64,000 nt of DNA from Eledone cirrhosa. Its lineage: Eukaryota. The notes below the pieces were generated by a model, which had not been told where the DNA came from, did no database searches, and saw nothing but the letters and a program-made list of their open reading frames with translations. The stretch spans positions 30,070,001 through 30,134,000 of the forward strand of contig OZ024752.1 of assembly GCA_964016885.1 (NCBI GenBank), written 5' to 3'. Shown here piece by piece: positions 18,280-62,740 of this stretch. How positions within the stretch are numbered: position 1 is the first letter of the stretch; every line of letters starts with the position of its first letter. Both the position numbers and the translations under genes were made by a program.

Positions 18280-18549
18280 CCCTCTTCCTGCTATTTCAAG
18301 CATTAACGTAATATATTCTTTCCATATACTGTAGAGATTGTGTTGTTATTTCTGTTTACTTTTCACACACACATACATATATATCATCATCATCATCGTT
18401 TAATGCTCATTTTCCACACTAGCATGGGTTATTAGTCTTTATCATTAACATTAATATAAAAAATAATAATCATGTATCATTACTTTAATGTTCTTTAACC
18501 CAAATCTTTTTGGAGAAAGGACTCAAATTTCATATTTCTTAGGGCCTCA

Positions 18550-18775
18550 GTAGGTGAGAGTCTGGCACTCTCTACTTCTCCCAATTTTGTAGAGGAAAAT
18601 GGCAGACTGGGCAGTGAGGGCACAGGAAGTCTTGATGGCAACTGGCAAAGGAAGGAAATGGTCAGTCAAAGCCCAATGTTTGGTCATTTTCTGTTCCTCT
18701 GGGTTACAGCTGTCAGTGCTTGGGTTTTGTGGCCAAAACAATGAGATTGGCACCCAGAACATGTTACATGTAGTA
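18550..18775 (-). mobile_element. CRE-like RLE fragment adjoining the 117-bp array
   Basis: Translation EEQKMTKHWALTDHFLPLPVAIKTSCALTAQSAIFLYKIGR is homologous to the 11340-11450 region. Confidence 0.6.
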
Positions 18776-19810: not shown

Positions 19811-20647
19811 AATTACAACAAGAAATATCTATGTTGATTATGGTTGCTGAATGGAATAGATATTTTAGTTACTTAGCCGGATTGAAAAGCAATTCATTTA
19901 TTATTCAGAAATAATTTACAACACCAAAACCAATATCACTTCAATACATAATAATTATTGAACACTGTTTGATTCTGTTCCAGGCAAACGATATGAAATG
20001 GGGAAAATGAATTCACTAATAAGTACAAATGAATCAATAATTAGCAGAGCCACAAATGATTTATCAAAAGAAAGACGTAGAGAAATGTCTAATTTTGTTG
20101 TTGTTGTTCAGCCTTGGTCAACTCTGAGTTAGTAGATTTTTTCAAAAGTATTTCAGTTGTGACCATCTGTTTTTTTTCTTTCAGTTACAGTATATGGTTT
20201 GGTTCTGTAACTACTGATGGAGTGTTTCTAAGGCATTTTAAAACCTAATGGAGCTCATCTCCTCTCCAGGCCTGAATAGAACAGATGTCTTCCAGAGAAG
20301 GATAGAGAGTGATAGAAAAGAAGTAAGAGAAATATATAGAGGAAGAATCAACTCCCAGTTGAAGACTGGTACTTTTTTTATCAACCCTGAAAGGACAAAA
20401 GGCAAAGTTGACCTCAGTATATGTAAGACTGCCTTATCTAAATGTGCCTTCCATTTTTAAGACAGGTGCAATTTGAGGGAGATTTGGTTGCTATTTTTAA
20501 CATTTTGAACAAACAGGTAGAAGCTCCTTTATAGGCTTGCCTCATTTATTTTTTATTATTACAGTGATAAATAGCAAAAAGAGAATATGAGATATAGAGA
20601 TATCTGTGTATATAGACACAATGAGATGAAAGCAAAAAGACAGCTAT

Positions 20648-21240
20648 ACCTCTCTCTCCCTCACATCCTTCCTCTCTCCCTCATTTCCTCTCTCTCTCTC
20701 CCTCACATTCTCCCTCTCTCCTTCACTTCCTCTCTCTCTCTCTCCTTCACCACCTCCTCTCTCCTTCACTTCCACTCACTCTCTCCTTCGCATCCTCTCT
20801 CTCTCCTTCACCCCCTCCCCTCTCCTTCACTCCCTCTTCTCTCTGTCACTTCTTCTCTCTCTCCTTCACCTCCTCCCTCTCTCCATCACACCCTCTCTTA
20901 CATCATCTCTCCCTCCTTCACTCCCTCCTCTCTCCGTCACTTCTCTCTCTCCTTCACCTCCTCCCTCTCTCCATCACACCCTCTCTTACATCATCTCTCT
21001 CTCCTTCACTCCCTCCTCTCTCCGTCACTTCTTCTCTCTTACCTTCACCTCCTCCCTCTCTCCATCACACCCTCTCTTACTTCATCTCTCTCTCCTTCAC
21101 TCTCTCCCCTCTCCTTCACCTCCTCCCTCTCTCCATCACACCCTCTCTTACATCATCTCTCTCTCCTTCACTCCCTCATCTCTCCATCACTTCTTCTCTC
21201 TCTCCTTCACCTCCTCCCTCCCTCTCTCCCACTCTCTTTC
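20648..21240. repeat. CT-rich low-complexity minisatellite
   Basis: CTCTCTCCTTCAC repeats. Confidence 0.9.
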
Positions 21241-37332: not shown

Positions 37333-37925
37333 ATGGCTTAGTGGTTAGAGCATTGGCCTTGCAATCGAAAGGTTGTGAGTTCAATTCTCAGACCAGGTGA
37401 TGTGGTGTTTCCATGGAGGCACATGGCTTAGTGCTTAGAGCATTGGCCTTGCAATCGAAAGGTTGTGAATTCAATTCTCAGACCAGGTGATGTGGTGTTT
37501 CCATGGAGGCACATGGCTTAGTGCTTAGAGCATTGGCCTTGCAATTGAAAGGTTGTGAGTTCAATTCTCAGACCAGGTGATGTGGTGTTTCCATGGAGGC
37601 ACATGGCTTAGTGCTTAGAGCATTGGCCTTGCAATCGAAAGGTTGTGAGTTCAATTCTCAGACCGGGTGATGTGTTGTTTCCTTGAGCAAGACACTTTAT
37701 TTCACATTGCTCCAGTTTACTCAGCTGTAGAAATGAGATGATAGGGACTGGGGTCCATATCATTCCACTGCAAAGTGGTCATGGAGGTGCCACAGCAAAA
37801 AAGCACCCAGCACTCACTGTAAATGAGGTTGGTGTTAGGAAGGGCATCCAGCTGTAGAAATCAAGCCAGAATCAGTTCCCGTCCCACCCTTGCAAGCAGG
37901 GAAAAAGCGGACGTAAAATGAAATG
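37333..37925 (+). mobile_element. CORE-type SINE family 1 with four tandem 90-bp tRNA-like heads
   Basis: ATGGCTTAGTG starts at 37333, 37423, 37513 and 37603; only the last continues into body and tail. Confidence 0.85.
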
Positions 37926-38109: not shown

Positions 38110-39040
38110 TATATTTGTTTTGCAAGGTTTTTTATATGAAATCTTGTGTCGAAACAAATATTGTTATACTTGGGGTGGGTCATATTGTTGTAATATTGCC
38201 AGAAATAATAACAGAACACACTCACTGTTTGGTTGGTTTTTGCTTCTGTATCTTTTATATCTCCATATTTAATTTATTTAGCAATCAATGTTTATCATTG
38301 ATTGACCAGCGGTTAAAAATACAGATATAAATATATATATATAGTCTATCAAAGTTCTTTCATTGCACATCTGCAACATCATCAGTGGTACATTTATGTT
38401 TCCTCCTGTTGTATTGTATGTCTACACCATTTTTATTTTTATTTATTTCTTTATTTCTTCTTGTCTCTGTCTCAGTTCATGCGTTTGTGTGTGTGTATAG
38501 TGTTTGGTGTATGTGTTCGCATTTGAGTGTATGGGTTTTTGTTTTTATATTCTATTTTTGTTCACTAGTGTGTGTTTATATGTGTTTGTTGTTATTGTAC
38601 TCGTGTATATATTTATTCATCTATTTATATTTCCCTTAAGTCAGTATTGTTTGTTTGGGTATGGTTGTTGTTATTCCATTCGTTTTTTTTCTGTTTAACT
38701 TCGGTATTCTTAGCTCTATCTCAGTTGCTTCTCTGATTTGTCTACCTGTAGAGTCATTTCTATACTTAGATAATATTCTAATTTCTATGTTGTCTATATT
38801 ACCGTCATGTCTTTGTCTGGTATATTCATATAGTACCGAACCATTTTTGTCCTTTTAGTTCCCCCCAGTGTTGGTCTATTCTTTCTCCTATGTTGTCTCA
38901 CCTATGTATGACGTTGTCATGTTTCTGCAAGTACCCTCTGTACATCTTATGCTATAGACTACATTTCTAGTTTTACAGTTTATCTGGGGGTTCATTCTAC
39001 ATATAACACATTTCTAATTTGTACAGTGGGTTTTCTTAAA
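38110..39040 (-). mobile_element. Penelope-like element 3' part (decayed GIY-YIG plus pLTR with hammerhead)
   Basis: Homologous to 61540-62450; minus strand reads CKTRNVVYSIRCTEGTCRNMTTSYIGET. HHR at 38347-38390. Confidence 0.8.
38347..38390 (-). ncRNA. Minimal hammerhead ribozyme in PLE pLTR
   Basis: TACCA-CTGATGA-T-GTTGCA gatg TGCAAT-GAAA-GAAC-TT-TGATA. Confidence 0.6.
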
Positions 39041-40903: not shown

Positions 40904-40922
40904 TATATATATATATATACAG

Positions 40923-41475
40923 GTAAGTATGCATGTATGTATACGTACATACATATATATATATATACAGACGTACAGTAGTATGTATATATATACATAC
41001 ATGCACACATATATATATGTATGTATCGGTTTATCGTTTTCGGTGCGCCCAATCGACTAAACTCACTCGATATGCAAATTAGGCTGCTCAGCCGTTAATA
41101 TGCATAAGGAAAGTATATACTTTCAGACGTTCAACCATCTGGCAGGAAGGTATACGATGCTGACGATAGCTAATAAGCTTGAAACTAGTACATCGTTCCT
41201 GTGTCAGTGTTGAACAAAAAGGTGACATGGTTGCCTAAACACTGTACGGCGTAATTCGGGCTGTTTGTTTGTTTACAAACAAACAAAGCGAGCATTATAA
41301 TAAATGTTCGGTAAACCGATACGTGCATATATATATGTGTGCATGTATGTATATATATACATACTACTGTACATCTGTATACATATATGTATGTACGTAT
41401 ACATACATGCATATTACATTTAAGTAACTGCCGTACTAAGAGTGAGAAATGAAATTTCGTTTCATTCTATTCTAT
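40923..41475 (+). mobile_element. Diverged single retrozyme-like monomer with inverted partial copy at its 5' side
   Basis: 41030-41475 aligns to the 466-bp unit. 40923-41036 is the reverse complement of 41309-41417. HHR at 41154-41196. Confidence 0.8.
41154..41196 (+). ncRNA. Type I hammerhead ribozyme (diverged copy)
   Basis: ACGATG-CTGACGA-T-AGCT aata AGCT-T-GAAA-CTAG-TA-CATCGT. Confidence 0.85.
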
Positions 41476-41511
41476 ATATATTCTATTCTATATATATACA
41501 TATATATATAC

Positions 41512-41574
<63 letters not shown>

Positions 41575-41583
41575 CATATATAT

Positions 41584-42408
41584 ATAAATTGAAACAAAAT
41601 GAAAACGAAATTTCATTTCTCACTCTTAGTATGGCACTTACTTAAATGTAAGTATGCATGTATACGTACATACATATATGTATACAGACGTACAGTAGCA
41701 TGCACATATATATATATATATATACATATATACATACATATGCATACAGGTACACATACATATATGCACGTATCAGTTTAGCGGCGCTAACGTCGCTTTG
41801 TTCGTTTGTAAACAAACTGAACAGCCTGAATTTATGCCATACGGTATTAAGGCAACCACGTCACCTTTTTGTTCAACACTGACACAGGAACGATGTACTA
41901 GTTTCAAGCTTGTTAGCTATCATCAGCACCGTTTACCCATCTGCCAGATAGTTGAACGTTCGAAAGTATATACTTTCCTTATGAAAATTAACGGCTGAGC
42001 AGCCTAATTTGCATATTGAGTGAGTTAAATCGGTCAGGCATACCGAAAACGATAAATTGAAACAAAATGAAAACGAAATTTCATTTCTCACTCTTAGTAT
42101 GGCACTTACTTAAATGTAAGTATGCATGTATACGTACATACATATATGTATACAGACGTACAGTAGCATGCACATATATATATATATATATACATATATA
42201 CATACATATGCATACAGGTACACATACATATATGCACGTATCAGTTTAGCGGCGCTAACGTCGCTTTGTTCGTTTGTAAACAAACTGAACAGCCTGAATT
42301 TATGCCATACGGTATTAAGGCAACCACGTCACCTTTTTGTTCAACACTGACACAGGAACGATGTACTAGTTTCAAGCTTGTTAGCTATCATCAGCACCGT
42401 TTACCCAT
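41584..42408 (-). repeat. Inverted ~1.8 units of the 466-bp hammerhead repeat (HHRs at 41891-41931 and 42359-42399)
   Basis: Reverse complement of array units; junction microhomology CAT at 42406-42408. Confidence 0.92.
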
Positions 42409-42507
42409 TTAAGTAAGTGCCATACTAAGAGTGAGAAATGAAATTTCGTTTTCATTTTGTTTCAATTTATCGTTTTCGGTATGCCTGACCGATTTAACTC
42501 ACTCAAT

Positions 42508-42515
42508 ATGCAAAT
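42508..42515 (+). promoter_or_regulatory. Octamer motif ATGCAAAT (one per unit; also 41072-41079)
   Basis: Perfect octamer about 110 nt upstream of the HHR cleavage site, retained in the diverged copy. Function is inferred only. Confidence 0.4.
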
Positions 42516-42588
42516 TAGGCTGCTCAGCCGTTAATTTTCATAAGGAAAGTATATACTTTCGAACGTTCAACTATCTGGCAGATGGGTA

Positions 42589-42633
42589 AACGGTGCTGAT
42601 GATAGCTAACAAGCTTGAAACTAGTACATCGTT
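42589..42633 (+). ncRNA. Type I minimal hammerhead ribozyme (first of 24; last at about 53315-53359)
   Basis: AACGGTG-CTGATGA-T-AGCT aaca AGCT-T-GAAA-CTAG-TA-CATCGTT. Stem I is 7 bp with one G.U. Predicted cleavage after GUA at 42626. Confidence 0.88.
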
Positions 42634-45600
42634 CCTGTGTCAGTGTTGAACAAAAAGGTGACGTGGTTGCCTTAATACCGTATGGCATAAATTCAGGCTG
42701 TTCAGTTTGTTTACAAACGAACAAAGCGACGTTAGCGCCGCTAAACTGATACGTGCATATATGTATGTGTACCTGTATGCATATGTATGTATATATGTAT
42801 ATATATATATATATGTGCATGCTACTGTACGTCTGTATACATATATGTATGTACGTATACATGCATACTTACATTTAAGTAAGTGCCATACTAAGAGTGA
42901 GAAATGAAATTTCGTTTTCATTTTGTTTCAATTTATCGTTTTCGGTATGCCTGACCGATTTAACTCACTCAATATGCAAATTAGGCTGCTCAGCCGTTAA
43001 TTTTCATAAGGAAAGTATATACTTTCGAACGTTCAACTATCTGGCAGATGGGTAAACGGTGCTGATGATAGCTAACAAGCTTGAAACTAGTACATCGTTC
43101 CTGTGTCAGTGTTGAACAAAAAGGTGACGTGGTTGCCTTAATACCGTATGGCATAAATTCAGGCTGTTCAGTTTGTTTACAAACGAACAAAGCGACGTTA
43201 GCGCCGCTAAACTGATACGTGCATATATGTATGTGTACCTGTATGCATATGTATGTATATATGTATATATATATATATATATGTGCATGCTACTGTACGT
43301 CTGTATACATATATTTATGTACGTATACATGCATACTTACATTTAAGTAAGTGCCATACTAAGAGTGAGAAATGAAATTTCGTTTTCATTTTGTTTCAAT
43401 TTATCGTTTTCGGTATGCCTGACCGATTTAACTCACTCAATATGCAAATTAGGCTGCTCAGCCGTTAATTTTCATAAGGAAAGTATATACTTTCGAACGT
43501 TCAACTATCTGGCAGATGGGTAAACGGTGCTGATGATAGCTAACAAGCTTGAAACTAGTACATCGTTCCTGTGTCAGTGTTGAACAAAAAGGTGACGTGG
43601 TTGCCTTAATACCGTATGGCATAAATTCAGGCTGTTCAGTTTGTTTACAAACGAACAAAGCGACGTTAGCGCCGCTAAACTGATACGTGCATATATGTAT
43701 GTGTACCTGTATGCATATGTATGTATATATGTATATATATATATATATGTGCATGCTACTGTACGTCTGTATACATATATGTATGTACGTATACATGCAT
43801 ACTTACATTTAAGTAAGTGCCATACTAAGAGTGAGAAATGAAATTTCGTTTTCATTTTGTTTCAATTTATCGTTTTCGGTATGCCTGACCGATTTAACTC
43901 ACTCAATATGCAAATTAGGCTGCTCAGCCGTTAATTTTCATAAGGAAAGTATATACTTTCGAACGTTCAACTATCTGGCAGATGGGTAAACGGTGCTGAT
44001 GATAGCTAACAAGCTTGAAACTAGTACATCGTTCCTGTGTCAGTGTTGAACAAAAAGGTGACGTGGTTGCCTTAATACCGTATGGCATAAATTCAGGCTG
44101 TTCAGTTTGTTTACAAACGAACAAAGCGACGTTAGCGCCGCTAAACTGATACGTGCATATATGTATGTGTACCTGTATGCATATGTATGTATATATATAT
44201 ATATATATGTGCATGCTACTGTACGTCTGTATACATATATGTATGTACGTATACATGCATACTTACATTTAAGTAAGTGCCATACTAAGAGTGAGAAATG
44301 AAATTTCGTTTTCATTTTGTTTCAATTTATCGTTTTCGGTATGCCTGACCGATTTAACTCACTCAATATGCAAATTAGGCTGCTCAGCCGTTAATTTTCA
44401 TAAGGAAAGTATATACTTTCGAACGTTCAACTATCTGGCAGATGGGTAAACGGTGCTGATGATAGCTAACAAGCTTGAAACTAGTACATCGTTCCTGTGT
44501 CAGTGTTGAACAAAAAGGTGACGTGGTTGCCTTAATACCGTATGGCATAAATTCAGGCTGTTCAGTTTGTTTACAAACGAACAAAGCGACGTTAGCGCCG
44601 CTAAACTGATACGTGCATATATGTATGTGTACCTGTATGCATATGTATGTATATATGTATATATATATATATATGTGCATGCTACTGTACGTCTGTATAC
44701 ATATATGTATGTACGTATACATGCATACTTACATTTAAGTAAGTGCCATACTAAGAGTGAGAAATGAAATTTCGTTTTCATTTTGTTTCAATTTATCGTT
44801 TTCGGTATGCCTGACCGATTTAACTCACTCAATATGCAAATTAGGCTGCTCAGCCGTTAATTTTCATAAGGAAAGTATATACTTTCGAACGTTCAACTAT
44901 CTGGCAGATGGGTAAACGGTGCTGATGATAGCTAACAAGCTTGAAACTAGTACATCGTTCCTGTGTCAGTGTTGAACAAAAAGGTGACGTGGTTGCCTTA
45001 ATACCGTATGGCATAAATTCAGGCTGTTCAGTTTGTTTACAAACGAACAAAGCGACGTTAGCGCCGCTAAACTGATACGTGCATATATGTATGTGTACCT
45101 GTATGCATATGTATGTATATATGTATATATATATATATATATGTGCATGCTACTGTACGTCTGTATACATATATGTATGTACGTATACATGCATACTTAC
45201 ATTTAAGTAAGTGCCATACTAAGAGTGAGAAATGAAATTTCGTTTTCATTTTGTTTCAATTTATCGTTTTCGGTATGCCTGACCGATTTAACTCACTCAA
45301 TATGCAAATTAGGCTGCTCAGCCGTTAATTTTCATAAGGAAAGTATATACTTTCGAACGTTCAACTATCTGGCAGATGGGTAAACGGTGCTGATGATAGC
45401 TAACAAGCTTGAAACTAGTACATCGTTCCTGTGTCAGTGTTGAACAAAAAGGTGACGTGGTTGCCTTAATACCGTATGGCATAAATTCAGGCTGTTCAGT
45501 TTGTTTACAAACGAACAAAGCGACGTTAGCGCCGCTAAACTGATACGTGCATATATGTATGTGTACCTGTATGCATATGTATGTATATATGTATATATAT

Positions 45601-48600
45601 ATATATATGTGCATGCTACTGTACGTCTGTATACATATATGTATGTACGTATACATGCATACTTACATTTAAGTAAGTGCCATACTAAGAGTGAGAAATG
45701 AAATTTCGTTTTCATTTTGTTTCAATTTATCGTTTTCGGTATGCCTGACCGATTTAACTCACTCAATATGCAAATTAGGCTGCTCAGCCGTTAATTTTCA
45801 TAAGGAAAGTATATACTTTCGAACGTTCAACTATCTGGCAGATGGGTAAACGGTGCTGATGATAGCTAACAAGCTTGAAACTAGTACATCGTTCCTGTGT
45901 CAGTGTTGAACAAAAAGGTGACGTGGTTGCCTTAATACCGTATGGCATAAATTCAGGCTGTTCAGTTTGTTTACAAACGAACAAAGCGACGTTAGCGCCG
46001 CTAAACTGATACGTGCATATATGTATGTGTACCTGTATGCATATGTATGTATATATGTATATATATATATATATGTGCATGCTACTGTACGTCTGTATAC
46101 ATATATGTATGTACGTATACATGCATACTTACATTTAAGTAAGTGCCATACTAAGAGTGAGAAATGAAATTTCGTTTTCATTTTGTTTCAATTTATCGTT
46201 TTCGGTATGCCTGACCGATTTAACTCACTCAATATGCAAATTAGGCTGCTCAGCCGTTAATTTTCATAAGGAAAGTATATACTTTCGAACGTTCAACTAT
46301 CTGGCAGATGGGTAAACGGTGCTGATGATAGCTAACAAGCTTGAAACTAGTACATCGTTCCTGTGTCAGTGTTGAACAAAAAGGTGACGTGGTTGCCTTA
46401 ATACCGTATGGCATAAATTCAGGCTGTTCAGTTTGTTTACAAACGAACAAAGCGACGTTAGCGCCGCTAAACTGATACGTGCATATATGTATGTGTACCT
46501 GTATGCATATGTATGTATATATGTATATATATATATATATATGTGCATGCTACTGTACGTCTGTATACATATATGTATGTACGTATACATGCATACTTAC
46601 ATTTAAGTAAGTGCCATACTAAGAGTGAGAAATGAAATTTCGTTTTCATTTTGTTTCAATTTATCGTTTTCGGTATGCCTGACCGATTTAACTCACTCAA
46701 TATGCAAATTAGGCTGCTCAGCCGTTAATTTTCATAAGGAAAGTATATACTTTCGAACGTTCAACTATCTGGCAGATGGGTAAACGGTGCTGATGATAGC
46801 TAACAAGCTTGAAACTAGTACATCGTTCCTGTGTCAGTGTTGAACAAAAAGGTGACGTGGTTGCCTTAATACCGTATGGCATAAATTCAGGCTGTTCAGT
46901 TTGTTTACAAACGAACAAAGCGACGTTAGCGCCGCTAAACTGATACGTGCATATATGTATGTGTACCTGTATGCATATGTATGTATATATGTATATATAT
47001 ATATATATATATGTGCATGCTACTGTACGTCTGTATACATATATGTATGTACGTATACATGCATACTTACATTTAAGTAAGTGCCATACTAAGAGTGAGA
47101 AATGAAATTTCGTTTTCATTTTGTTTCAATTTATCGTTTTCGGTATGCCTGACCGATTTAACTCACTCAATATGCAAATTAGGCTGCTCAGCCGTTAATT
47201 TTCATAAGGAAAGTATATACTTTCGAACGTTCAACTATCTGGCAGATGGGTAAACGGTGCTGATGATAGCTAACAAGCTTGAAACTAGTACATCGTTCCT
47301 GTGTCAGTGTTGAACAAAAAGGTGACGTGGTTGCCTTAATACCGTATGGCATAAATTCAGGCTGTTCAGTTTGTTTACAAACGAACAAAGCGACGTTAGC
47401 GCCGCTAAACTGATACGTGCATATATGTATGTGTACCTGTATGCATATGTATGTATATATGTATATATATATATATATGTGCATGCTACTGTACGTCTGT
47501 ATACATATATGTATGTACGTATACATGCATACTTACATTTAAGTAAGTGCCATACTAAGAGTGAGAAATGAAATTTCGTTTTCATTTTGTTTCAATTTAT
47601 CGTTTTCGGTATGCCTGACCGATTTAACTCACTCAATATGCAAATTAGGCTGCTCAGCCGTTAATTTTCATAAGGAAAGTATATACTTTCGAACGTTCAA
47701 CTATCTGGCAGATGGGTAAACGGTGCTGATGATAGCTAACAAGCTTGAAACTAGTACATCGTTCCTGTGTCAGTGTTGAACAAAAAGGTGACGTGGTTGC
47801 CTTAATACCGTATGGCATAAATTCAGGCTGTTCAGTTTGTTTACAAACGAACAAAGCGACGTTAGCGCCGCTAAACTGATACGTGCATATATGTATGTGT
47901 ACCTGTATGCATATGTATGTATATATGTATATATATATATATATATGTGCATGCTACTGTACGTCTGTATACATATATGTATGTACGTATACATGCATAC
48001 TTACATTTAAGTAAGTGCCATACTAAGAGTGAGAAATGAAATTTCGTTTTCATTTTGTTTCAATTTATCGTTTTCGGTATGCCTGACCGATTTAACTCAC
48101 TCAATATGCAAATTAGGCTGCTCAGCCGTTAATTTTCATAAGGAAAGTATATACTTTCGAACGTTCAACTATCTGGCAGATGGGTAAACGGTGCTGATGA
48201 TAGCTAACAAGCTTGAAACTAGTACATCGTTCCTGTGTCAGTGTTGAACAAAAAGGTGACGTGGTTGCCTTAATACCGTATGGCATAAATTCAGGCTGTT
48301 CAGTTTGTTTACAAACGAACAAAGCGACGTTAGCGCCGCTAAACTGATACGTGCATATATGTATGTGTACCTGTATGCATATGTATGTATATATGTATAT
48401 ATATATATATATGTGCATGCTACTGTACGTCTGTATACATATATGTATGTACGTATACATGCATACTTACATTTAAGTAAGTGCCATACTAAGAGTGAGA
48501 AATGAAATTTCGTTTTCATTTTGTTTCAATTTATCGTTTTCGGTATGCCTGACCGATTTAACTCACTCAATATGCAAATTAGGCTGCTCAGCCGTTAATT

Positions 48601-51600
48601 TTCATAAGGAAAGTATATACTTTCGAACGTTCAACTATCTGGCAGATGGGTAAACGGTGCTGATGATAGCTAACAAGCTTGAAACTAGTACATCGTTCCT
48701 GTGTCAGTGTTGAACAAAAAGGTGACGTGGTTGCCTTAATACCGTATGGCATAAATTCAGGCTGTTCAGTTTGTTTACAAACGAACAAAGCGACGTTAGC
48801 GCCGCTAAACTGATACGTGCATATATGTATGTGTACCTGTATGCATATGTATGTATATATGTATATATATATATATATGTGCATGCTACTGTACGTCTGT
48901 ATACATATATGTATGTACGTATACATGCATACTTACATTTAAGTAAGTGCCATACTAAGAGTGAGAAATGAAATTTCGTTTTCATTTTGTTTCAATTTAT
49001 CGTTTTCGGTATGCCTGACCGATTTAACTCACTCAATATGCAAATTAGGCTGCTCAGCCGTTAATTTTCATAAGGAAAGTATATACTTTCGAACGTTCAA
49101 CTATCTGGCAGATGGGTAAACGGTGCTGATGATAGCTAACAAGCTTGAAACTAGTACATCGTTCCTGTGTCAGTGTTGAACAAAAAGGTGACGTGGTTGC
49201 CTTAATACCGTATGGCATAAATTCAGGCTGTTCAGTTTGTTTACAAACGAACAAAGCGACGTTAGCGCCGCTAAACTGATACGTGCATATATGTATGTGT
49301 ACCTGTATGCATATGTATGTATATATGTATATATATATATATATGTGCATGCTACTGTACGTCTGTATACATATATGTATGTACGTATACATGCATACTT
49401 ACATTTAAGTAAGTGCCATACTAAGAGTGAGAAATGAAATTTCGTTTTCATTTTGTTTCAATTTATCGTTTTCGGTATGCCTGACCGATTTAACTCACTC
49501 AATATGCAAATTAGGCTGCTCAGCCGTTAATTTTCATAAGGAAAGTATATACTTTCGAACGTTCAACTATCTGGCAGATGGGTAAACGGTGCTGATGATA
49601 GCTAACAAGCTTGAAACTAGTACATCGTTCCTGTGTCAGTGTTGAACAAAAAGGTGACGTGGTTGCCTTAATACCGTATGGCATAAATTCAGGCTGTTCA
49701 GTTTGTTTACAAACGAACAAAGCGACGTTAGCGCCGCTAAACTGATACGTGCATATATGTATGTGTACCTGTATGCATATGTATGTATATATGTATATAT
49801 ATATATATGTGCATGCTACTGTACGTCTGTATACATATATGTATGTACGTATACATGCATACTTACATTTAAGTAAGTGCCATACTAAGAGTGAGAAATG
49901 AAATTTCGTTTTCATTTTGTTTCAATTTATCGTTTTCGGTATGCCTGACCGATTTAACTCACTCAATATGCAAATTAGGCTGCTCAGCCGTTAATTTTCA
50001 TAAGGAAAGTATATACTTTCGAACGTTCAACTATCTGGCAGATGGGTAAACGGTGCTGATGATAGCTAACAAGCTTGAAACTAGTACATCGTTCCTGTGT
50101 CAGTGTTGAACAAAAAGGTGACGTGGTTGCCTTAATACCGTATGGCATAAATTCAGGCTGTTCAGTTTGTTTACAAACGAACAAAGCGACGTTAGCGCCG
50201 CTAAACTGATACGTGCATATATGTATGTGTACCTGTATGCATATGTATGTATATATGTATATATATATATATATGTGCATGCTACTGTACGTCTGTATAC
50301 ATATATGTATGTACGTATACATGCATACTTACATTTAAGTAAGTGCCATACTAAGAGTGAGAAATGAAATTTCGTTTTCATTTTGTTTCAATTTATCGTT
50401 TTCGGTATGCCTGACCGATTTAACTCACTCAATATGCAAATTAGGCTGCTCAGCCGTTAATTTTCATAAGGAAAGTATATACTTTCGAACGTTCAACTAT
50501 CTGGCAGATGGGTAAACGGTGCTGATGATAGCTAACAAGCTTGAAACTAGTACATCGTTCCTGTGTCAGTGTTGAACAAAAAGGTGACGTGGTTGCCTTA
50601 ATACCGTATGGCATAAATTCAGGCTGTTCAGTTTGTTTACAAACGAACAAAGCGACGTTAGCGCCGCTAAACTGATACGTGCATATATGTATGTGTACCT
50701 GTATGCATATGTATGTATATATGTATATATATATATATATGTGCATGCTACTGTACGTCTGTATACATATATGTATGTACGTATACATGCATACTTACAT
50801 TTAAGTAAGTGCCATACTAAGAGTGAGAAATGAAATTTCGTTTTCATTTTGTTTCAATTTATCGTTTTCGGTATGCCTGACCGATTTAACTCACTCAATA
50901 TGCAAATTAGGCTGCTCAGCCGTTAATTTTCATAAGGAAAGTATATACTTTCGAACGTTCAACTATCTGGCAGATGGGTAAACGGTGCTGATGATAGCTA
51001 ACAAGCTTGAAACTAGTACATCGTTCCTGTGTCAGTGTTGAACAAAAAGGTGACGTGGTTGCCTTAATACCGTATGGCATAAATTCAGGCTGTTCAGTTT
51101 GTTTACAAACGAACAAAGCGACGTTAGCGCCGCTAAACTGATACGTGCATATATGTATGTGTACCTGTATGCATATGTATGTATATATGTATATATATAT
51201 ATATATATGTGCATGCTACTGTACGTCTGTATACATATATGTATGTACGTATACATGCATACTTACATTTAAGTAAGTGCCATACTAAGAGTGAGAAATG
51301 AAATTTCGTTTTCATTTTGTTTCAATTTATCGTTTTCGGTATGCCTGACCGATTTAACTCACTCAATATGCAAATTAGGCTGCTCAGCCGTTAATTTTCA
51401 TAAGGAAAGTATATACTTTCGAACGTTCAACTATCTGGCAGATGGGTAAACGGTGCTGATGATAGCTAACAAGCTTGAAACTAGTACATCGTTCCTGTGT
51501 CAGTGTTGAACAAAAAGGTGACGTGGTTGCCTTAATACCGTATGGCATAAATTCAGGCTGTTCAGTTTGTTTACAAACGAACAAAGCGACGTTAGCGCCG

Positions 51601-53599
51601 CTAAACTGATACGTGCATATATGTATGTGTACCTGTATGCATATGTATGTATATATGTATATATATATATATATGTGCATGCTACTGTACGTCTGTATAC
51701 ATATATGTATGTACGTATACATGCATACTTACATTTAAGTAAGTGCCATACTAAGAGTGAGAAATGAAATTTCGTTTTCATTTTGTTTCAATTTATCGTT
51801 TTCGGTATGCCTGACCGATTTAACTCACTCAATATGCAAATTAGGCTGCTCAGCCGTTAATTTTCATAAGGAAAGTATATACTTTCGAACGTTCAACTAT
51901 CTGGCAGATGGGTAAACGGTGCTGATGATAGCTAACAAGCTTGAAACTAGTACATCGTTCCTGTGTCAGTGTTGAACAAAAAGGTGACGTGGTTGCCTTA
52001 ATACCGTATGGCATAAATTCAGGCTGTTCAGTTTGTTTACAAACGAACAAAGCGACGTTAGCGCCGCTAAACTGATACGTGCATATATGTATGTGTACCT
52101 GTATGCATATGTATGTATATATGTATATATATATATATATGTGCATGCTACTGTACGTCTGTATACATATATGTATGTACGTATACATGCATACTTACAT
52201 TTAAGTAAGTGCCATAATAAGAGTGAGAAATGAAATTTCGTTTTCATTTTGTTTCAATTTATCGTTTTCGGTATGCCTGACCGATTTAACTCACTCAATA
52301 TGCAAATTAGGCTGCTCAGCCGTTAATTTTCATAAGGAAAGTATATACTTTCGAACGTTCAACTATCTGGCAGATGGGTAAACGGTGCTGATGATAGCTA
52401 ACAAGCTTGAAACTAGTACATCGTTCCTGTGTCAGTGTTGAACAAAAAGGTGACGTGGTTGCCTTAATACCGTATGGCATAAATTCAGGCTGTTCAGTTT
52501 GTTTACAAACGAACAAAGCGACGTTAGCGCCGCTAAACTGATACGTGCATATATGTATGTGTACCTGTATGCATATGTATGTATATATGTATATATATAT
52601 ATATATATGTGCATGCTACTGTACGTCTGTATACATATATGTATGTACGTATACATGCATACTTACATTTAAGTAAGTGCCATACTAAGAGTGAGAAATG
52701 AAATTTCGTTTTCATTTTGTTTCAATTTATCGTTTTCGGTATGCCTGACCGATTTAACTCACTCAATATGCAAATTAGGCTGCTCAGCCGTTAATTTTCA
52801 TAAGGAAAGTATATACTTTCGAACGTTCAACTATCTGGCAGATGGGTAAACGGTGCTGATGATAGCTAACAAGCTTGAAACTAGTACATCGTTCCTGTGT
52901 CAGTGTTGAACAAAAAGGTGACGTGGTTGCCTTAATACCGTATGGCATAAATTCAGGCTGTTCAGTTTGTTTACAAACGAACAAAGCGACGTTAGCGCCG
53001 CTAAACTGATACGTGCATATATGTATGTGTACCTGTATGCATATGTATGTATATATGTATATATATATATATATGTGCATGCTACTGTACGTCTGTATAC
53101 ATATATGTATGTACGTATACATGCATACTTACATTTAAGTAAGTGCCATACTAAGAGTGAGAAATGAAATTTCGTTTTCATTTTGTTTCAATTTATCGTT
53201 TTCGGTATGCCTGACCGATTTAACTCACTCAATATGCAAATTAGGCTGCTCAGCCGTTAATTTTCATAAGGAAAGTATATACTTTCGAACGTTCAACTAT
53301 CTGGCAGATGGGTAAACGGTGCTGATGATAGCTAACAAGCTTGAAACTAGTACATCGTTCCTGTGTCAGTGTTGAACAAAAAAGGTGACGTGGTTGCCTT
53401 AATACCGTATGGCATAAATTCAGGCTGTTCAGTTTGTTTACAAACGAACAAAGCGACGTTAGCGCCGCTAAACTGATACGTGCATATATGTATGTGTACC
53501 TGTATGCATATGTATGTATATATGTATATATATATATATATGTGCATGCTACTGTACGTCTGTATACATATATGTATGTACGTATACATGCATACTTAC

Positions 53600-53790
<191 letters not shown>

Positions 53791-53923: not shown

Positions 53924-54242
53924 ATAAAATATTAAAAAAATAATGAATAAAACAATGAAACAGTTCCTTATATTAAACAAAAAAAGTTCATTATTTAACG
54001 ATCGTTTCTAGGATATATATGTGGGATTATTTCTGAAGACGGCATATATATGTGTTGGTATGTATATTTAATTTTGATAGTTTGTATAATTTTGTATAAT
54101 TTTGTACATAGATCTGTTGAATATGCATGCCAATTCTAACACACATATATATCCTAGAAACGATCGTTAAATAATGAACTTTTTTTGTTTAACATAAGGA
54201 ACTGTTTCATTGTTTTATTCATTATTTTTTTTAATATTTTAT
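53924..54242. mobile_element. ~100-bp inverted repeat (53924-54023 / 54142-54242) with hammerhead
   Basis: Arms are near-perfect reverse complements. Confidence 0.75.
54026..54175 (+). ncRNA. Type I hammerhead with very long stem II
   Basis: ATTATTT-CTGAAGA-[~117-nt hairpin]-GAAA-CGATCG-TT-AAATAAT; 7-bp stem I and palindromic stem III. Confidence 0.65.
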
Positions 54243-54670: not shown

Positions 54671-54733
<63 letters not shown>

Positions 54734-54735
54734 TA
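54240..54735. repeat. (TA)n/(CATA)n microsatellite
   Basis: Direct inspection. Confidence 0.95.
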
Positions 54736-55163
54736 AATTGGTAAAAGGAAAAGAAAATGCTGATAAATTGTTCCCAGTGAAAAATAGTTTAATTCGGAAT
54801 AAGTAAAAATTAGTAATAAGTATTGGTTAGTATTCAGTTTTGGTTTTAAGTTTTTACCAGTTGCGCATTTCTAATGCTTTTCAAAAATAATGATGTTTGC
54901 TCTAATCTGATTAGTTTTGGAAATTCTACCTGTTTTATGTGAAAAAAGTGGCTCTAGATGTATTAAAATAAGTTTCGCGCCAATTCGTGTTGCAAAAATT
55001 CTTGTGGTCAATACAATTTTGATTGGTCGGTAGAGGTCATGTGAATGTTAAAATACATACACATATATATATATACATATATATATATATACATACATAT
55101 ATATATATATACATATATATATAGAATTCACAAGAATCAAAGCTATGTTCAAAGCATTTATTA

Positions 55164-56214: not shown

Positions 56215-58341
56215 CATCATCATCATCATCATCATCATCAACGTTTAACGTCCGTGTTCCACGCTTGCATGGGTTTGGACGGGGGTAGTCCCACTTGAGG
56301 CAAGAGTGATTGTCTTGCTCGCATAGGACTGTCTGGCAGGTTTTCTACAGTTGGATGCCCTTCCTAACACCAACCACATTTACAGTGTGGGTCTGGGAGG
56401 TTTTTACCGTGTTGCCTACACGGCCACATTACAGCGTGGACTGTGTGTTTTTTGTCGTGACACCTACACGATCTCATTTGTTTCGGCCTGGATGGCGCGG
56501 CACCAACATAACTTTACATAGAACGGGGTGCTGTGGATGGGGTGGGGGTGGTGGTGGTGGGACGGGGTGTATTTTGTTAGAGATGCCTACTGGCTGTAGT
56601 AGGTTTTACGATGTATTTAGGTAAGGCGGGTCTTCTCTGTTACTGAGTACCGCCAAACGTCTTGGTCCAGTGACATTGTCTTGGAGAGGTGTAAGTGTGT
56701 GAGGTCGGAGTTTATCAGCTCGTCCCAGGTTTTTCTAGGTCTGCCTATTCCGTGGCTACCGTCTATCTTTATTGCCCTGCACTTTGTTATACAGCTATCA
56801 ACTTTCATGCGCATCACGTGTCCATACCAACGTAGCCTTCTCTCGAGTAAACAACATCTGATCCCTCTTATTTCTAATTTTTTCCTTAGTTCGTTTATGC
56901 TTTGCCGTTCACGTATATTACTGTTACACATCCAGCGGAGCATGCAAGCTTCCTTCCTCTCTAGTCTGCGTATATCCTCTGCACACAATGCCCAGGTCTC
57001 ACTCCCATGCAACATTGCTGTTCGTATGCAGGCATCGTACAACCTGCCTTTCATTTTTAGGGAGAACCCTTTAGCAGCTAATAGTGGTATAAGCTCTCTG
57101 AACTTTTTCCAACCAGTTCTGACTCTAGCTACTGTACTTTCAGAGCACCCTCCCCCACTGCTGATTTTGTCGCCCAGGTAACGGAAGCTGTCCACTATTT
57201 CTATAGAACCCTCTGCGCAATTGAAAGAGCTAGTATTTTGTGGGCACTTGCTGCTACTTATTGCACCAGAGCACCGGCCACATGTAAAATCTATGTTCTT
57301 AGTTAGCTTACCTGTGATCCCACTACATCTTTTATTCACCCATACTTTGCATTTAGGACATAAAATGGAGTTTCTACCTACGCCTTTCCTACACACCGAG
57401 CACGACCATTTCCCAGAAGGGACCGCCGCCTTGTTTTCTTTCCTACAAACTAGTACTTTGGTCTTAGCCAGGTTAATTTTAAGTCCTTTTGACTCTAGGC
57501 CGTGCTTCCATGTTTGGAATTTCTTCTCTAGCTCAGCCATTGATTCCGCTATGAGTGTCAGGTCGTCTGCGTATAGGAGTTCCCATGGGCAGCCAGTCTT
57601 GAACTCCTCTGTTATAGCCTGAAGGGCAATAATAAATAGTAGGGGGCTGAGAACAGAGCCCTGATGGACGCCAACTTTTACGCTAAACTCTTCACTATAT
57701 TCGTTGTTAATTCTAACCTTGCTGACTGTTTCTTTATACATGGCTTGTATAGCTCTCACAAGCCATTCGTCAACACCTAGTTTTCTAAGAGCCCACCAGA
57801 TAATGGAATGGGGGACTCTGTCAAAGGCTTTCTCCAAGTCGACAAAAGCTAAGTAGAGGGGTTTACCTTTAGCTAGGTACTTCTCCTGTAGTTGTCGTAC
57901 AATGAAAAGAGCGTCTGTGGTACTTTTGCCTGACACAAACCCGAACTGCATTTCATCTAGGTCTATTCTCTCTCTGATTAGTTGCGCTATTACTTTTTCC
58001 GTGACCTTCATGACCTGGTCGATTAATTTAATGCCTCTATAGTTACTCCTATCTAGGGCATCTCCTTTACCCTTATAACAGTTAACGATGATGCTGCTAT
58101 GCCAGTCCTTCGGAACAACCGCTTTCTGTACGACTTGGTTAACTATGCGGGTGACCATGGTGTGTCCCACTGTGTCAGATGCCTTCAGCATCTCGGCAAC
58201 TATTTCCGAAGGCCCAGCCGCCTTACCCGTCTTCATATCCTTGATTGCCTTACTTATTTTACTCCCCTCGACTAACACTGCTGGTCCCTCTATTGGGTCG
58301 ATGTGGGGTAGACTGTCTTTCTCCCATTTATTCTCCTCATA
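56215..58341 (-). mobile_element. 5'-truncated RTE-clade LINE with 3' UTR and (GAT)n tail
   Basis: RT ORF followed by a 400-bp UTR ending in (CAT)n on the plus strand. The 5' end abuts a CA/TA microsatellite. No APE domain is present. Confidence 0.9.
56617..58341 (-). CDS. Non-LTR (RTE) reverse transcriptase, N-terminally truncated, with Cys-rich PHD-like insertion
   Basis: About 575 open codons with KAAGP, NYRGIKL, QFGF, FVDLEKAFD, GVHQGSVLSP, YADD, FRYLG, RRLRWYGHV and GRPRKTW. The ORF's first ~57 aa are microsatellite. Confidence 0.9.
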   Translation of the reverse strand, partial: YEENKWEKDSLPHIDPIEGPAVLVEGSKISKAIKDMKTGKAAGPSEIVAEMLKASDTVGHTMVTRIVNQVVQKAVVPKDWHSSIIVNCYKGKGDALDRSNYRGIKLIDQVMKVTEKVIAQLIRERIDLDEMQFGFVSGKSTTDALFIVRQLQEKYLAKGKPLYLAFVDLEKAFDRVPHSIIWWALRKLGVDEWLVRAIQAMYKETVSKVRINNEYSEEFSVKVGVHQGSVLSPLLFIIALQAITEEFKTGCPWELLYADDLTLIAESMAELEKKFQTWKHGLESKGLKINLAKTKVLVCRKENKAAVPSGKWSCSVCRKGVGRNSILCPKCKVWVNKRCSGITGKLTKNIDFTCGRCSGAISSSKCPQNTSSFNCAEGSIEIVDSFRYLGDKISSGGGCSESTVARVRTGWKKFRELIPLLAAKGFSLKMKGRLYDACIRTAMLHGSETWALCAEDIRRLERKEACMLRWMCNSNIRERQSINELRKKLEIRGIRCCLLERRLRWYGHVMRMKVDSCITKCRAIKIDGSHGIGRPRKTWDELINSDLTHLHLSKTMSLDQDVWRYSVTEKTRLT

Positions 58342-59139
58342 ACATAAAAATAAATACATACACACACACACACATACAAACACATACACACACATATACA
58401 TACACACACACACACACACATATACATATATACATATATATACACACACACATACATACAAATACATACACACACATGTATGTGTGTAAAACTCATTCTT
58501 AGATGTATTCATTTGAACCTTGTTTAACTCTTAAATTATATATAAACATACACACATATATATATACATATATATATATACATATATATGCAAAAGTTCT
58601 ATTTAAATTGTTGGGATACAACAAGCAAATATTTTTATAACTGGTATAAAGCACTCGACAAGTATTTGGAGTAAATATACGATATTAACAAATGGAAACT
58701 ATATTTATAAAACCATATCTATTTTATTATACATATTTCAAGGATACAATGTTAAATTATGGTATGCTTTCATCAGACAAAATACAATATATACCAGTTT
58801 TATAAATAAATATTGACATACCCTTTCAAGATGCAACCGTTACTTTTGGAAGACATCAGGGATAGTGGATTTGTTTACTTATATTAGTAAGTCGTTGTGT
58901 TACGGAGAAGGAAAAAGACGGAGAGAGAGAGAGAAAAGCGGAGAGAGAGAAAAGGGAGAAATAAAGAAAGAAAAAGTAAAAGAGAAAAACGAGAGAGAGA
59001 TATCAAAACACCAGACAGAGAGAAAAAAACCGATAATAATATAAAAACTAACCATAATAATAACAATTGTAACTATGGTAACAATTTTAACAACTATAAT
59101 AGAAAACCTTACAATAATTCCGAAAGCCGAAAAATAAAT

Positions 59140-59822
59140 AGAACTAGGAACATAGTATGGTTCGCTCCTCCTTTCTCACTAAATATTAAAACCCCTATTG
59201 CTAAACTATTCTTTAAAGCTCTTGACAAACGCTTCCCTAGAACACAGATATTACTCAATTTTTAATAGACATACTATAAAATTAACTTACTCTTCCACCA
59301 AAAATTTAGCGCAAAATATTAATAGAATTAATAATAGAAATTTAAAACTTAACCAAAATACCAATAATAACCCAAGCAATATTCAATCGAATAATTGTAA
59401 CTGTAGAAATAAATCCAACTGTCCGTTAAATAACAATTGCTTAGCTCAAAATGTAGTTTATAATTGTAATGTAAAAACTAATTTAAATTCATTTAATTAT
59501 GTCGGATCTACCCCCACAGAGTTTAAATCCCGCTTCAATAATCATAAAAATTCTTTTACAGATCCAAACAAAAAATCTTCAACTTCGCTATCTAGCCTAT
59601 TATGGGACCTAAAACGAGAATATTGAATATTCGCTGATTTGGAATATTATTTCAAAAGCTACTCCTTTTAATTCTTCTTCAGAAAATTGCGATCTTTGTA
59701 TAGAGGAAATATTCTTTATATTAAAGACCAAAAATTCCCTGAATTTAAGGAATAATTTATTCAGTTGCTGCAGACATAGATTGAACTCAACGTTTAAATA
59801 TAAATATAAATTTAAAATGTAG
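59140..59822 (+). pseudogene. PLE thumb/GIY-YIG endonuclease fragment (frameshifted)
   Basis: RNIVWFAPPFS, IFNRHTIKLTYSS, CNCRNKSNCPLNNNC, VVY..YVGST..FKSRFNNHKNSF, CDLCIEE..LNLRNNLFSCCRHR. Confidence 0.85.
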
Positions 59823-61236
59823 TATATAATTAATTAAGTAATTTGGTTAATATATGAAACCTGTCGATAAATCATTAGATTCCTTCATCTTTTTCATTTT
59901 CTTTGATTAAGTACTCAAGTATAAATAAATTTTCCTCCTAAATATAAATATAAATATAATAAACTATTCTAGAGAAATATATTGAGAGCTCTTGAAAGGA
60001 GAAAATATTTCCTATTTCTTATTTTTTATATTTTTTATATTTTATTTATTTTTTATTATGTTTGCTTTTATTCTGATATTTTTATTCTGATAGCTTCTCA
60101 CAATTTTCGAAAGTTTATCCTTTCAATATCTTGAGTAAAATATACGTAAGATAAATTTCTATACTAAATCTATTAAACATATTATTTTAACTTAAAATAT
60201 TTTAATATTTTAGAATTCTTTTGTTTTTAAAATTATATTGATATAATTATATTTCCAAAATATAATCCTTTTGTATTTTAGGTACTCAATTATAATGTAC
60301 TATAGTGATGTATACTTATCTCTATACGTGTATGTATGTATATGTGGATATTAACATACATATACATGTTATTATATGCATTTTTATGAATATATGTCTG
60401 TCTGTATATATGCATGCGTGACGCGTGTCTACCAATTGGCTGAGGATGCACACACATGTTTATATATGTATATGTAAGAATTGTGTGTGTACATGTGTAC
60501 CCATACAATTTGATTGCAGATAGACATAATTAACAGCCATAAATGCATGACAGCTAATCCTATGTATTTATATATATGTATTAATTTTGTTTATTTAATA
60601 ACACAAAGGATGTATAACATTAATAAAAAAAAATCATTTATGTTTTGTATGTATATATTATATACGGGGGTAGATATGATGTGTACTTTGTGAGTGTGCG
60701 TATATATATTTTTATGTGTATTTTTTGCGTGTGTGTACGTGGTATATAATATGTAATTTCTCTAGCAATATATAGATTTCTTAATGTTTAAATTCCAATT
60801 TTTAATATATTGATCTCAATTTTTAAACTAAATATCTAATCATAGTTAAACAATGATTAATTTCTCATATTATATATGTACATTCCATTCATGAATATAA
60901 ATATTTCTAATTTTATTTATTCATTTCATCTTAATTGTTAACTTAACTTAATATGACATGACTTAAGGTTTTCGTTCTCTCCCCCTCTCTCTATCTCTAT
61001 ATTTCTCTCTCTCAGTTTTTTCTCTCTGTCTGGTGGTTTGATATCTCTCTCTCGTTTTTCTCTTTTTCTTTCTTTATTTCTCCCTTTTCTCTCTCTCTCC
61101 GTCTTTTTCCTTCTCCGTAACACAACGACTTACTAATATAAGTAAACAAATCCACTATCCCTGATGTCTTCCAAAAGTAACGGTTGCATCTTGAAAGGGT
61201 ATGTCAATATTTATTTATAAAACTGGTATATATTGT

Positions 61237-61299
61237 ATTTTGTCTGATGAAAGCATACCATAATTTAATATGGTATCCTTGAAATATGTATAATAAAAT
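61237..61299 (+). ncRNA. Type I hammerhead in PLE pLTR (inverted copy at 58721-58783)
   Basis: ATTTTGT-CTGATGA-AAGcATACCATA attta a TATGGTATcCTT-GAAA-TATGTA-TA-ATAAAAT. Confidence 0.7.
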
Positions 61300-61539
61300 A
61301 GATATGGTTTTATAAATATAGTTTCCATTTGTTAATATCGTATATACATATATATATATACATACACACACACACATATATATAAGAAAATACATAAATA
61401 TTATATATATATAAAAATAAAAAGTTGGGAATACGACAAATAATAAATAAATAAATAATTAGAAAAGGGTATAAATGTTTATAGCTGATTTAGAGCACTC
61501 AACAAGTTCCTAAATACACATATATATATATATATAGTT

Positions 61540-62740
61540 ATACTTGGGGAGGGTCATATTTGTGTAATAATATTGCCAGAATTACTAACAGAACACACTC
61601 ACTGTTTGGTTGGTTTTCGCTTCTGTGTCCTTTATATCGGTTAATTTAATTTATTCGGTCCTCAATGTTACCATTGACTGACCAACGATAAAAAATACAG
61701 ATACAATATAGACACAAACACATATATATAGTCTAACAAAGTTCTTTCGTTGCACATCTGCAACATCGTCAGTGGTGCTATTATGTTTCCTCCCGTTGCA
61801 TTGTATGCTTACGCCATCTTTATTTAGTCTGTTTATTTATTTATTTGTTTATTTTTTGTCTTCTCTGCGCATGCGTTTGCGTGTGTGTATAGTGTTTTGT
61901 TTGATGTGTGTTCGTATTTGGGTGACTGTGTATTGGTTTTTGTATTCTATCTTAGTTTACTAGTGTGTGTTTATATGTGTTTGTTGTTATTGTGCTTGTG
62001 TATGTATTTATTTATTTATTTATTTATACTCACTTCTCTTAGGTCAGTGTTGTTTGTTTGGGTATTGTTGTTATTCCATTCATTTTTTTCTGTTTAGCCT
62101 TGGCCTTCTAAGTTCTATTTCACTGGCCTCTCTGATTTGCCTATCTGCTGGGTCATTTTTATGTTTAGATATTATTCTAATTTCTATGTTGTCTATGTTA
62201 CCGTCATGTTGTTGTCTGGCATGTTCGTATAGTACTGAACCGTTTTTTCATCCTTTTAGTTCCCCCCAGTGTTGGTCTATCCTTTCGCCTATGCTTCAAG
62301 CTGTCTCGCCTATGTATGTTGTTGTCATGTTTCTGCAAGTACCCTCTGTACATCTTATGCTATAGACTACGTTTCTAGTTTTACAGTTTATCCGGGGGTT
62401 TATTTTACATATGATACATTTCCTATTAGTACAGTGGGTTTTCTTAAAAGGGTAGGTTTTGCTGATCAGGATTTTATGGTGGTTCCTGGCTTTTCTACCA
62501 CCTTAATCTTTAAGTGGATCTTTTTCAGGGCCTTTCTACACTGGTTAGCTAATTTCCCTCCAGGGGTAGCGTCCACAAACATGACTCTCTGGTTGTAGTA
62601 CCATGAGGTGGCTTTCCCTATCTTATGTCTAGTCCTATCTAAGCTATTCCATGATTTGCTCCTGTATAATGGGCAAATTCCTTTCATGTCCAGTTCTATG
62701 AGGGTCTTATACTTCTCTGTGGCTCCTTCGTATACTCTTT
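61540..62740 (-). mobile_element. Penelope-like element 3' part (GIY-YIG plus pLTR)
   Basis: Minus strand reads VMFVDATPGGKLA...IKVVEKPGTTIKS...CIIC...CKTRNVVYSIRC...YIGET...IGERIDQH...RQIREA..I...LNRKNEW. Confidence 0.85.
61734..61777 (-). ncRNA. Minimal hammerhead ribozyme in PLE pLTR
   Basis: CTGACGA-T-GTTGCA gatg TGCAAC-GAAA-GAAC-TT; perfect 6-bp stem II, weak stem I. Confidence 0.6.

Follow-up and report, generated by a model that had tools for sequence, protein, structure and literature searches.

How did 24 nearly identical, non-coding repeats, each with a hammerhead ribozyme, come to stand in tandem in the genome of an octopod, and what machinery placed them there? The question is raised by a locus of Eledone cirrhosa (GenBank assembly GCA_964016885.1, contig OZ024752.1, positions 30,070,001 to 30,134,000 of the forward strand), a stretch of 64,000 nucleotides that we call the window and whose first nucleotide is position 1 in the window coordinates given below. 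An earlier note, made from the letters of the window alone, had described the repeats as a retrozyme-like system mobilized in trans by the reverse transcriptase (RT) of a Penelope-like element (PLE). The reading at which we arrive, and to which we assign a probability of about three in four, is that the array was inserted recently and is a non-autonomous, non-coding retroelement, namely a retrozyme without long terminal repeats (non-LTR retrozyme), moved by PLE-type machinery. At the level of DNA, it is supported by the dispersed family to which the array belongs, the conserved ribozyme fold, the (TA)n targets, the two fixed 3' ends, and the 5' truncations and inversions. Non-LTR retrozymes are a kind of element already described (PMC7229834; bioRxiv 10.64898/2026.07.22.740005); the features that we have not found described are the PLE tail geometry throughout a family and an element of a host U6-type promoter. 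The literature search yielded no cephalopod retrozyme, and neither such tail geometry nor a U6-type promoter in a retrozyme; supplements, Dfam or Repbase may already list the family.

Layout of the insertion

Tandem Repeats Finder (TRF) places the array at 42406-53601, with a period of 466 bp, 24.0 copies and 99% matches, which bears out the repeat structure described earlier. The units of this direct arm are 460-470 bp long, have a GC content below 45%, and each contain a complete type I hammerhead. The majority of them (14 of 24) are identical, the others varying in the length of one TA run, beyond which all 24 units together hold two substitutions and one single-base insertion. The sole length-variable part of the unit is an AT/GT microsatellite (42745-42858 in unit 1, plus strand) that folds as a long hairpin. 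The fold z-score of the unit, -8.5, was considered as a sign of function and rejected, given that it arises largely from this hairpin, and the Rfam miRNA matches at the same place are under the cut-off. That the array lacks a credible protein open reading frame (ORF) was also correctly noted: the frames inside it reach at most 135 aa and pass through the microsatellite, and neither the frames of the window nor the 66 mapped loci discussed below include an RT plus GIY-YIG ORF within the element, such as an autonomous PLE would have.

The extent previously given, 42406-53601, holds for the direct arm and falls short of the whole insertion, of which an inverted arm and the (TA)n flanks had been missed. 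The direct arm, on the plus strand, carries 24 exact ribozyme cores (42596 to 53322) and has its 3' end at unit position 466, hereafter site A. Head to head with it lies the inverted arm (41584-42407, minus strand), which comprises 1.75 units with two hammerheads (cores at 42394 and 41926) and has its 3' end at a second site, B. Both outer ends run into (TA)n, at 41464-41586 on the left and 53602-53790 on the right, where target-site duplications are unreadable. The insertion is very young, with a single difference from a locus on another chromosome.

Ends of insertions across a dispersed family

Is this geometry peculiar to one locus? Across the 3.0-Gb genome, a 33-nt pattern of the core is matched exactly at 23,477 places and the reversed-pattern control at none, and the family is dispersed as monomers to multimers with no LTR layout (a primer-binding site and a polypurine tract were not searched for). 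We mapped arms in 66 loci, namely the window, the 11 best matches of a separate search that scored 40 of 114 candidates, and 54 loci drawn, in order, from the first 100 core matches on contig C1, and every arm consists of unit sequence. Once arms at the edge of a locus are set aside, 113 remain: the 3' end falls at site A (unit position 450-466) in 45 of them and at site B (unit position 50-68, in most cases 65) in 54, so that 99 of 113 end at one of two sites that are 65 nt apart, and the other 14 end elsewhere; 88 of the 113 run straight into (TA)n. The 65 nt by which B lies past A form a 'tail' (42406-42470 in unit 1, plus strand) with a hairpin and T-runs. Head-to-head pairs number 33, and in 23 of the 24 that are classifiable at both ends one A end is combined with one B end, the single A+A pair actually continuing into the tail (locus L193 supplies two like pairs). 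The 5' ends, by contrast with these fixed 3' ends, are scattered over every segment of the unit, with four in the bin that holds the cut site and no pile-up there; the first bin of these counts is inflated by a mapping artefact. Given this scatter, we attach no meaning to the fact that the inverted arm in the window begins at the predicted transcription start.

For a PLE protein it was shown that both strands are nicked and extended and that synthesis begins at two neighboring positions within the RNA, which yields a tail called 'unique to PLEs' (PMC11167929, Frangieh et al.), and the tail, the inverted 5' copy and a bias to microsatellites have been described for PLEs (PMC8557442, Craig et al.). 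The present family shows all of these: two fixed 3' ends that delimit a tail, 5' truncation, an inverted 5' copy and a microsatellite target, and two ends in (TA)n are also found in the coding PLE families of this genome. Thus, the two-site 3' ends, the 5' inversions and the (TA)n targets match the PLE signature and provide strong genomic evidence that makes PLE-type integration of the family very probable; on the same three features, a non-LTR retrozyme moved by a Penelope-like RT, as proposed in the earlier note, is the best reading.

Two further families were seen. A paralogous retrozyme family with a unit of approximately 470 bp (L084:290-850, L077, L143:60-610) has a B-type end in (TA)n, aligns with about 315 nt of the unit (score 160, against 40 for the best shuffle), and swaps stems I and II while retaining the core, loop 2 and stem III. 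Another tandem hammerhead family (L069:8760-9901, minus strand), with a period of 310 bp and a U.U at the base of stem II, also ends in (TA)n, and no match to the U6-type element discussed below was seen in it. Words of the unit are also present in 20 sequencing runs under 15 organism labels and in one metagenome. The 24 runs listed as holders include no RNA run; among four runs looked into, one is rich in variants and two have low-depth contigs only, and the raw reads of one run that shares its organism label with a holder gave 0 of 12.8 million records, which is not a valid test. We do not read these occurrences as horizontal transfer, carry-over between samples being simpler, albeit itself unproven.

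The hammerhead ribozyme

In unit 1, the ribozyme occupies 42582-42638 (plus strand) and consists of a distal stem, internal loop 1, a 6-bp stem I, the core at 42596, stem II, stem III and the GUA triplet, with the cut predicted after 42626, the position given previously. It has the core CUGANGA, GAAA, UH, three stems and an open helix I that define type I. Of the stems that had been proposed, the 4-bp stem II (over a U.U) and the palindromic stem III (2 bp, with a palindromic loop) stand, whereas the 7-bp stem I does not: six base pairs are conserved, including one G.U, and the seventh is a U.U in older subfamilies. Nor does the label 'minimal' type I fit, this motif being the 'canonical' metazoan type I, which is thought to cleave as a dimer (PMC4209133). 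The presence of a hammerhead in every unit is upheld by the 24 exact cores on the plus strand, and a descriptor of equal stringency (stem I at least 6, stem II at least 4, stem III at least 1) matched none of 20,000 dinucleotide shuffles of the unit. The Rfam search that had been recommended returned no hammerhead at the gathering score, the best match being HH9 with 18.5 bits against a cut-off of 52.

An alignment of 53 distinct variants (55 were found, and two cut by junctions were left out) shows 8 of 18 pairs altered on both sides, with 47 cells compared to 18.9 in shuffled and at most 6 in slid controls; the rows were gathered by core pattern, which builds in the invariance of the core and stem III, and related sequences inflate the covariation, much of which reflects splits between subfamilies and the inclusion of three rows from the paralogous family. 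We take the covariation as support for the predicted fold and not as a probability. A single ribozyme is predicted to favor a register that hides the core (probability of stem III 0.0, of inner stem I 0.18-0.29), which is in line with cutting that depends on a dimer or on a protein. The ribozyme is very likely to be active.

A candidate U6-type promoter

What could transcribe such a unit? Three unrelated U6 promoters, the RNase MRP gene and the best U6atac gene of this genome carry a common element at positions -77 to -79, followed by a TATA box at -30; several other U6 matches and five other U6atac matches, which may be pseudogenes, are without the element. The unit carries a copy (42507-42518 in unit 1, plus strand), with an octamer inside it, that scores 20.6 bits compared to 17.4-20.8 bits for five host genes transcribed by RNA polymerase III (Pol III); the background is 0 of 102,372 positions, and the regions upstream of 30 U1/U2 loci reach at most 5.8 bits. 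This element sits 77-79 nt before the ribozyme stem, the distance seen in U6-type promoters, and is followed, 43 nt after its start, by a TATA-like box (42550-42556, plus strand). The start predicted for unit 1 is 42584-42586 by the motif and 42580 by the TATA box, just before stem I. The paralogous family keeps the element exactly. In a gapped alignment of the whole upstream region with a U6 promoter, the similarity was not significant (55/500), the element of 12-14 nt being all that is common.

The chances that Pol III would use this putative promoter appear to be about even, and the octamer-containing element could act for Pol II instead. A Pol II promoter of the small nuclear RNA (snRNA) type was considered and set aside, the upstream regions of U1/U2 using other motifs. 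These promoters (upstream of L118-L147) have motifs of their own around positions -92 and -56 together with a TATA-like box around -30, without the U6 element, so the choice of polymerase in this genome may rest on different upstream elements and not on the presence of a TATA box. Six U6 copies of the C19 cluster (L104, L105, L107-L110) have lost the upstream element, repeat-like sequence replacing it up to the TATA box. A common subfamily (L149, L155, L165, L187 and others) is without 8 bp between the TATA box and the ribozyme, and a start set by its TATA box would shift to the first base of stem I.

Penelope-like elements in the genome and around the array

Three PLE families of the genome that were retrieved have intact frames, of 1215, 1243 and 784 aa. 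The 784-aa frame matches RVT_1 and GIY-YIG, whereas the two longer frames have no Pfam match and were assigned to PLEs by motifs read by eye. These two represent sister Neptune-like families (L062:2094-5738, 1215 aa, with a long Asn-rich insert, and L095:957-4685, 1243 aa), with a clean hammerhead in the pseudo-LTR (pLTR) of one and a degenerate one in that of the other. The third is a young family (L229:4999-8648) in which a 455-aa frame overlaps the 784-aa frame and the tail measures about 40 nt; no hammerhead was found in a scan of its 1.2-kb 3' region. A likeness of the retrozyme tail to the end of this third family was rejected, as it is not significant (57 and 60 of 400 shuffles) and is offset from the real ends of that family.

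The note had also placed PLE remnants with hammerheads on both sides of the array and leaned on their nearness. Remnants are indeed there (38113-39040, 54732-55046, 58700-59800 and 61529-62738), but the left hammerhead-like motif (about 38345-38390, minus strand) has a poor stem I and no remnant is homologous to the unit. They belong to the intact families and to others, with 15,000-21,000 search candidates per family, and one neighboring PLE protein is 69% identical to a protein named from Octopus vulgaris. Because these families are so abundant, use the same (TA)n target and have no significant sequence in common with the unit, we regard them as neighbors by shared target choice, otherwise unrelated, and their nearness carries no weight as an argument for the mover.

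Immediately to the left of the insertion lies an older, separate insertion of the same family (40921-41466, plus strand; 80-87% identity). It has a short inverted piece (40921-41030, minus strand) ending at site A, and a direct piece with the motif at 41071, the hammerhead (core at 41160, with an A-U in place of the G.U of the young unit) and the tail. The window further includes a Penelope-type GIY-YIG remnant unrelated to the array (58700-59800 and 61140-61340), with hammerheads at 58776 (minus) and 61244 (plus); a hammerhead-like motif inside an inverted repeat (54020-54185), whose stem I has 7 bp, whose stem III is palindromic and whose stem II spans about 120 nt; a 637-aa open RT frame of a long interspersed element (56617-58530, minus strand; RVT_1, E 1e-33); a tandem of a 90-bp tRNA-like head of a short interspersed element (SINE) in 3.9 copies (37333-37682); and a 117-bp tandem in 8.2 copies (18838-19798).

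Mechanism, template and alternative explanations

The following scenario could accommodate these observations. The unit would be transcribed from its own U6-type promoter or by read-through, and transcripts spanning two ribozymes would be cut, probably as ribozyme dimers, into monomers of about 466 nt that a host ligase would close into circles. A Penelope-like RT-endonuclease would then nick both strands of a (TA)n and begin reverse transcription at internal positions of the RNA (site A for one strand, site B for the other), and by running round the circle would produce a head-to-head pair of tandem arms, in this case of 24 and 1.75 units. Since the template would include the upstream promoter, each new array would retain an external promoter, unlike an ordinary SINE, from which it would be lost. 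In its full form, in which a retrozyme lineage captured an external U6-type Pol III promoter of the host and kept it by circle copying, with the PLE RT priming both strands at two internal sites and rolling for more than 11 kb, this is a tentative proposal, to which we give somewhat less than an even chance.

Which template was copied is the point on which the alternatives diverge. Arrays cross the ribozyme and the promoter many times and their 5' ends ignore the cut site, which implies a template that is either a circle or a multimer, in any case longer than one linear monomer. All 26 copies in the window, in both arms, have T at unit position 271, whereas most other young units have C; the exceptions are among matches chosen for their likeness to the window, and C dominates the richest sequencing run. 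Similarly, the arrays L160 and L171 each show private changes in all full units that are absent from the other loci among 20 compared. The shared T271 and these private changes point to one monomer as the source and so favor rolling-circle copying; accordingly, we somewhat prefer a circular to a long linear template.

The alternative that survives best, although we consider it unlikely, keeps the same element and the same PLE machinery and replaces the circle with a long, uncut read-through RNA of an existing array, made by Pol II or leaky Pol III, the ribozyme being a bystander or acting late. Uncut RNA is the main substrate of the PLE protein PAc in vitro (PMC11167929), coding PLEs of this genome form tandems of three units of about 4.1 kb, the scattered 5' ends fit this scheme equally well, and the core-hiding register preferred by a single ribozyme agrees with it. 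It requires, on the other hand, that 24 or more homogeneous units, all with the rare T271, already stood together in a source array, and no such array was found among the best 40 of 114 candidates, and the covariation in the stems says that the fold is under selection.

Several findings weigh against the reading that we prefer, beyond the limits of the covariation named above. The search for a source array scored just those 40 of 114 candidates, so that a homogeneous one may exist, and several arrays are mixed in sequence, with as many as 15 differences from unit to unit, as would be expected of old arrays or of multimeric templates. The spacing from motif to TATA is 43 in the unit and about 44 in the paralogue against 47-49 in the host genes, that is, 4-6 nt too close. 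In 83 of 129 units retrieved, the tail has a run of T5-T8 (T4 in the window) some 10 nt ahead of site B; at such runs most Pol III transcripts would be expected to terminate without reaching the promoter segment and the next ribozyme, which argues against simple Pol III multimers and means that every productive template must have read through. Eight of nine Xenopus dimers did not cleave (bioRxiv 10.64898/2026.07.22.740005), and PAc insertion in vitro does not need the ribozyme (PMC11167929). Finally, the search for a partner found no whole-element homology between the unit and the three intact PLE families, in contrast to the pLTR homology reported from Xenopus (bioRxiv 10.64898/2026.07.22.740005); when the tails were compared with six PLE ends, 16 of 18 comparisons were at chance, one reached 12/400 and one 1/400 shuffles, the last involving the paralogue and not the family in the window, and the tail is 65 nt long compared to about 60 and about 40 nt in PLEs of this genome.

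A second alternative, which we hold to be rather improbable, is that a PLE-type insertion was short at first and reached 24 units afterwards, through slippage or unequal crossing-over, as in the birth of a satellite, or that the assembly inflated the copy number. Later expansion is the model stated by Li et al. (bioRxiv 10.64898/2026.07.22.740005), 24 units are far above the maximum of 8-9 seen at other loci, and near-identical units would also be expected from a recent expansion or a collapsed assembly. Against it, tandem units are already present in each arm, each end is an exact integration end, the TA-length variants show no higher-order pattern, and the insertion is very young, with its single difference from a locus on another chromosome; moreover, expansion would explain the copy number only and not the family. 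That the unit is the pLTR of an autonomous PLE missed by our searches, which scored the best candidates only and covered three or four families, and was amplified as truncated copies, is very improbable even though type I hammerheads and tails are found in the pLTRs of PLEs (PMC4209133), given that units adjoin without an intervening ORF, that all arms in the mapped loci are unit sequence, and that the pLTRs of the three intact families, when examined, had neither the U6-type motif nor homology to the unit.

Comparison with known systems

The retrozyme reading places the family close to the non-LTR retrozymes of coral, mussel and axolotl, for which RNA, cleavage and circles were shown and PLEs proposed as movers (Cervera and de la Pena 2020, PMC7229834), whereas the present family is described here from genomic DNA. 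Both consist of tandem units that code for no protein and carry a single type I hammerhead, both are low in GC and both have thousands of copies (there from dimers to 62-mers), and the U.U at the base of helix II along with the short helix III is shared with the axolotl HHR_Amex2; the unit of 466 bp compares with RNAs of 170-400 nt and repeats of up to 450 bp there, and the passages of that paper on its retrozymes give no tail, inversion or promoter (PMC7229834). In vertebrates, Li, Clavereau and Pollet (2026; bioRxiv 10.64898/2026.07.22.740005) covered 35 species, no mollusc among them, and suggested local amplification for arrays. Like their retrozymes, the family co-occurs with PLEs, fits their definition of an active retrozyme and has a unit size within their range of 51-972 bp; the link to PLEs was made there through co-occurrence and pLTR homology, in Xenopus, but here through the integration signature, homology not having been found.

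With PLEs themselves (PAc, PMC11167929; Neptune and Naiad, PMC8557442), the family shares two internal RT start sites with an optional tail, 5' truncation, an inverted 5' copy, AT-rich or (TA)n targets and a hammerhead upstream of the tail, and it differs from them in the absence of an ORF, in a tail of 65 nt compared to 30-40 nt, and in the repetition of the whole unit. In schistosome SM-alpha, transcribed by Pol III, and in newt satellite 2, transcribed by Pol II, hammerhead repeats also stand in tandem and each unit provides the promoter for the one that follows (PMC6765202). Unlike in those systems, the candidate promoter here is a host U6-type upstream element with a TATA box. Newt satellite 2 has an snRNA-type promoter with an octamer and a proximal sequence element, and SM-alpha has internal boxes.

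Implications

So what does this locus contribute to the understanding of retrozymes? The accounts given in PMC7229834 and bioRxiv 10.64898/2026.07.22.740005 leave two questions open: what moves the retrozymes of animals, and whether the arrays are made directly by rolling-circle copying or expand afterwards as satellites. The end geometry of dozens of insertions favors PLEs as the mover and leans towards rolling-circle copying for the arrays, and it names two exact start sites that are usable in the existing PLE in vitro system. With more than 23,000 cores, the family makes up a noticeable share of the genome and goes undetected by Rfam. The upstream element shared by the small-RNA genes defines a Pol III promoter of this octopod, which is useful for small-RNA expression in cephalopods. 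Should the captured-promoter circle reading be true, it would provide direct sequence-level proof of the mover of a retrozyme, a substrate for the use of circular RNA by PLEs, and a portable Pol III promoter for cephalopods.

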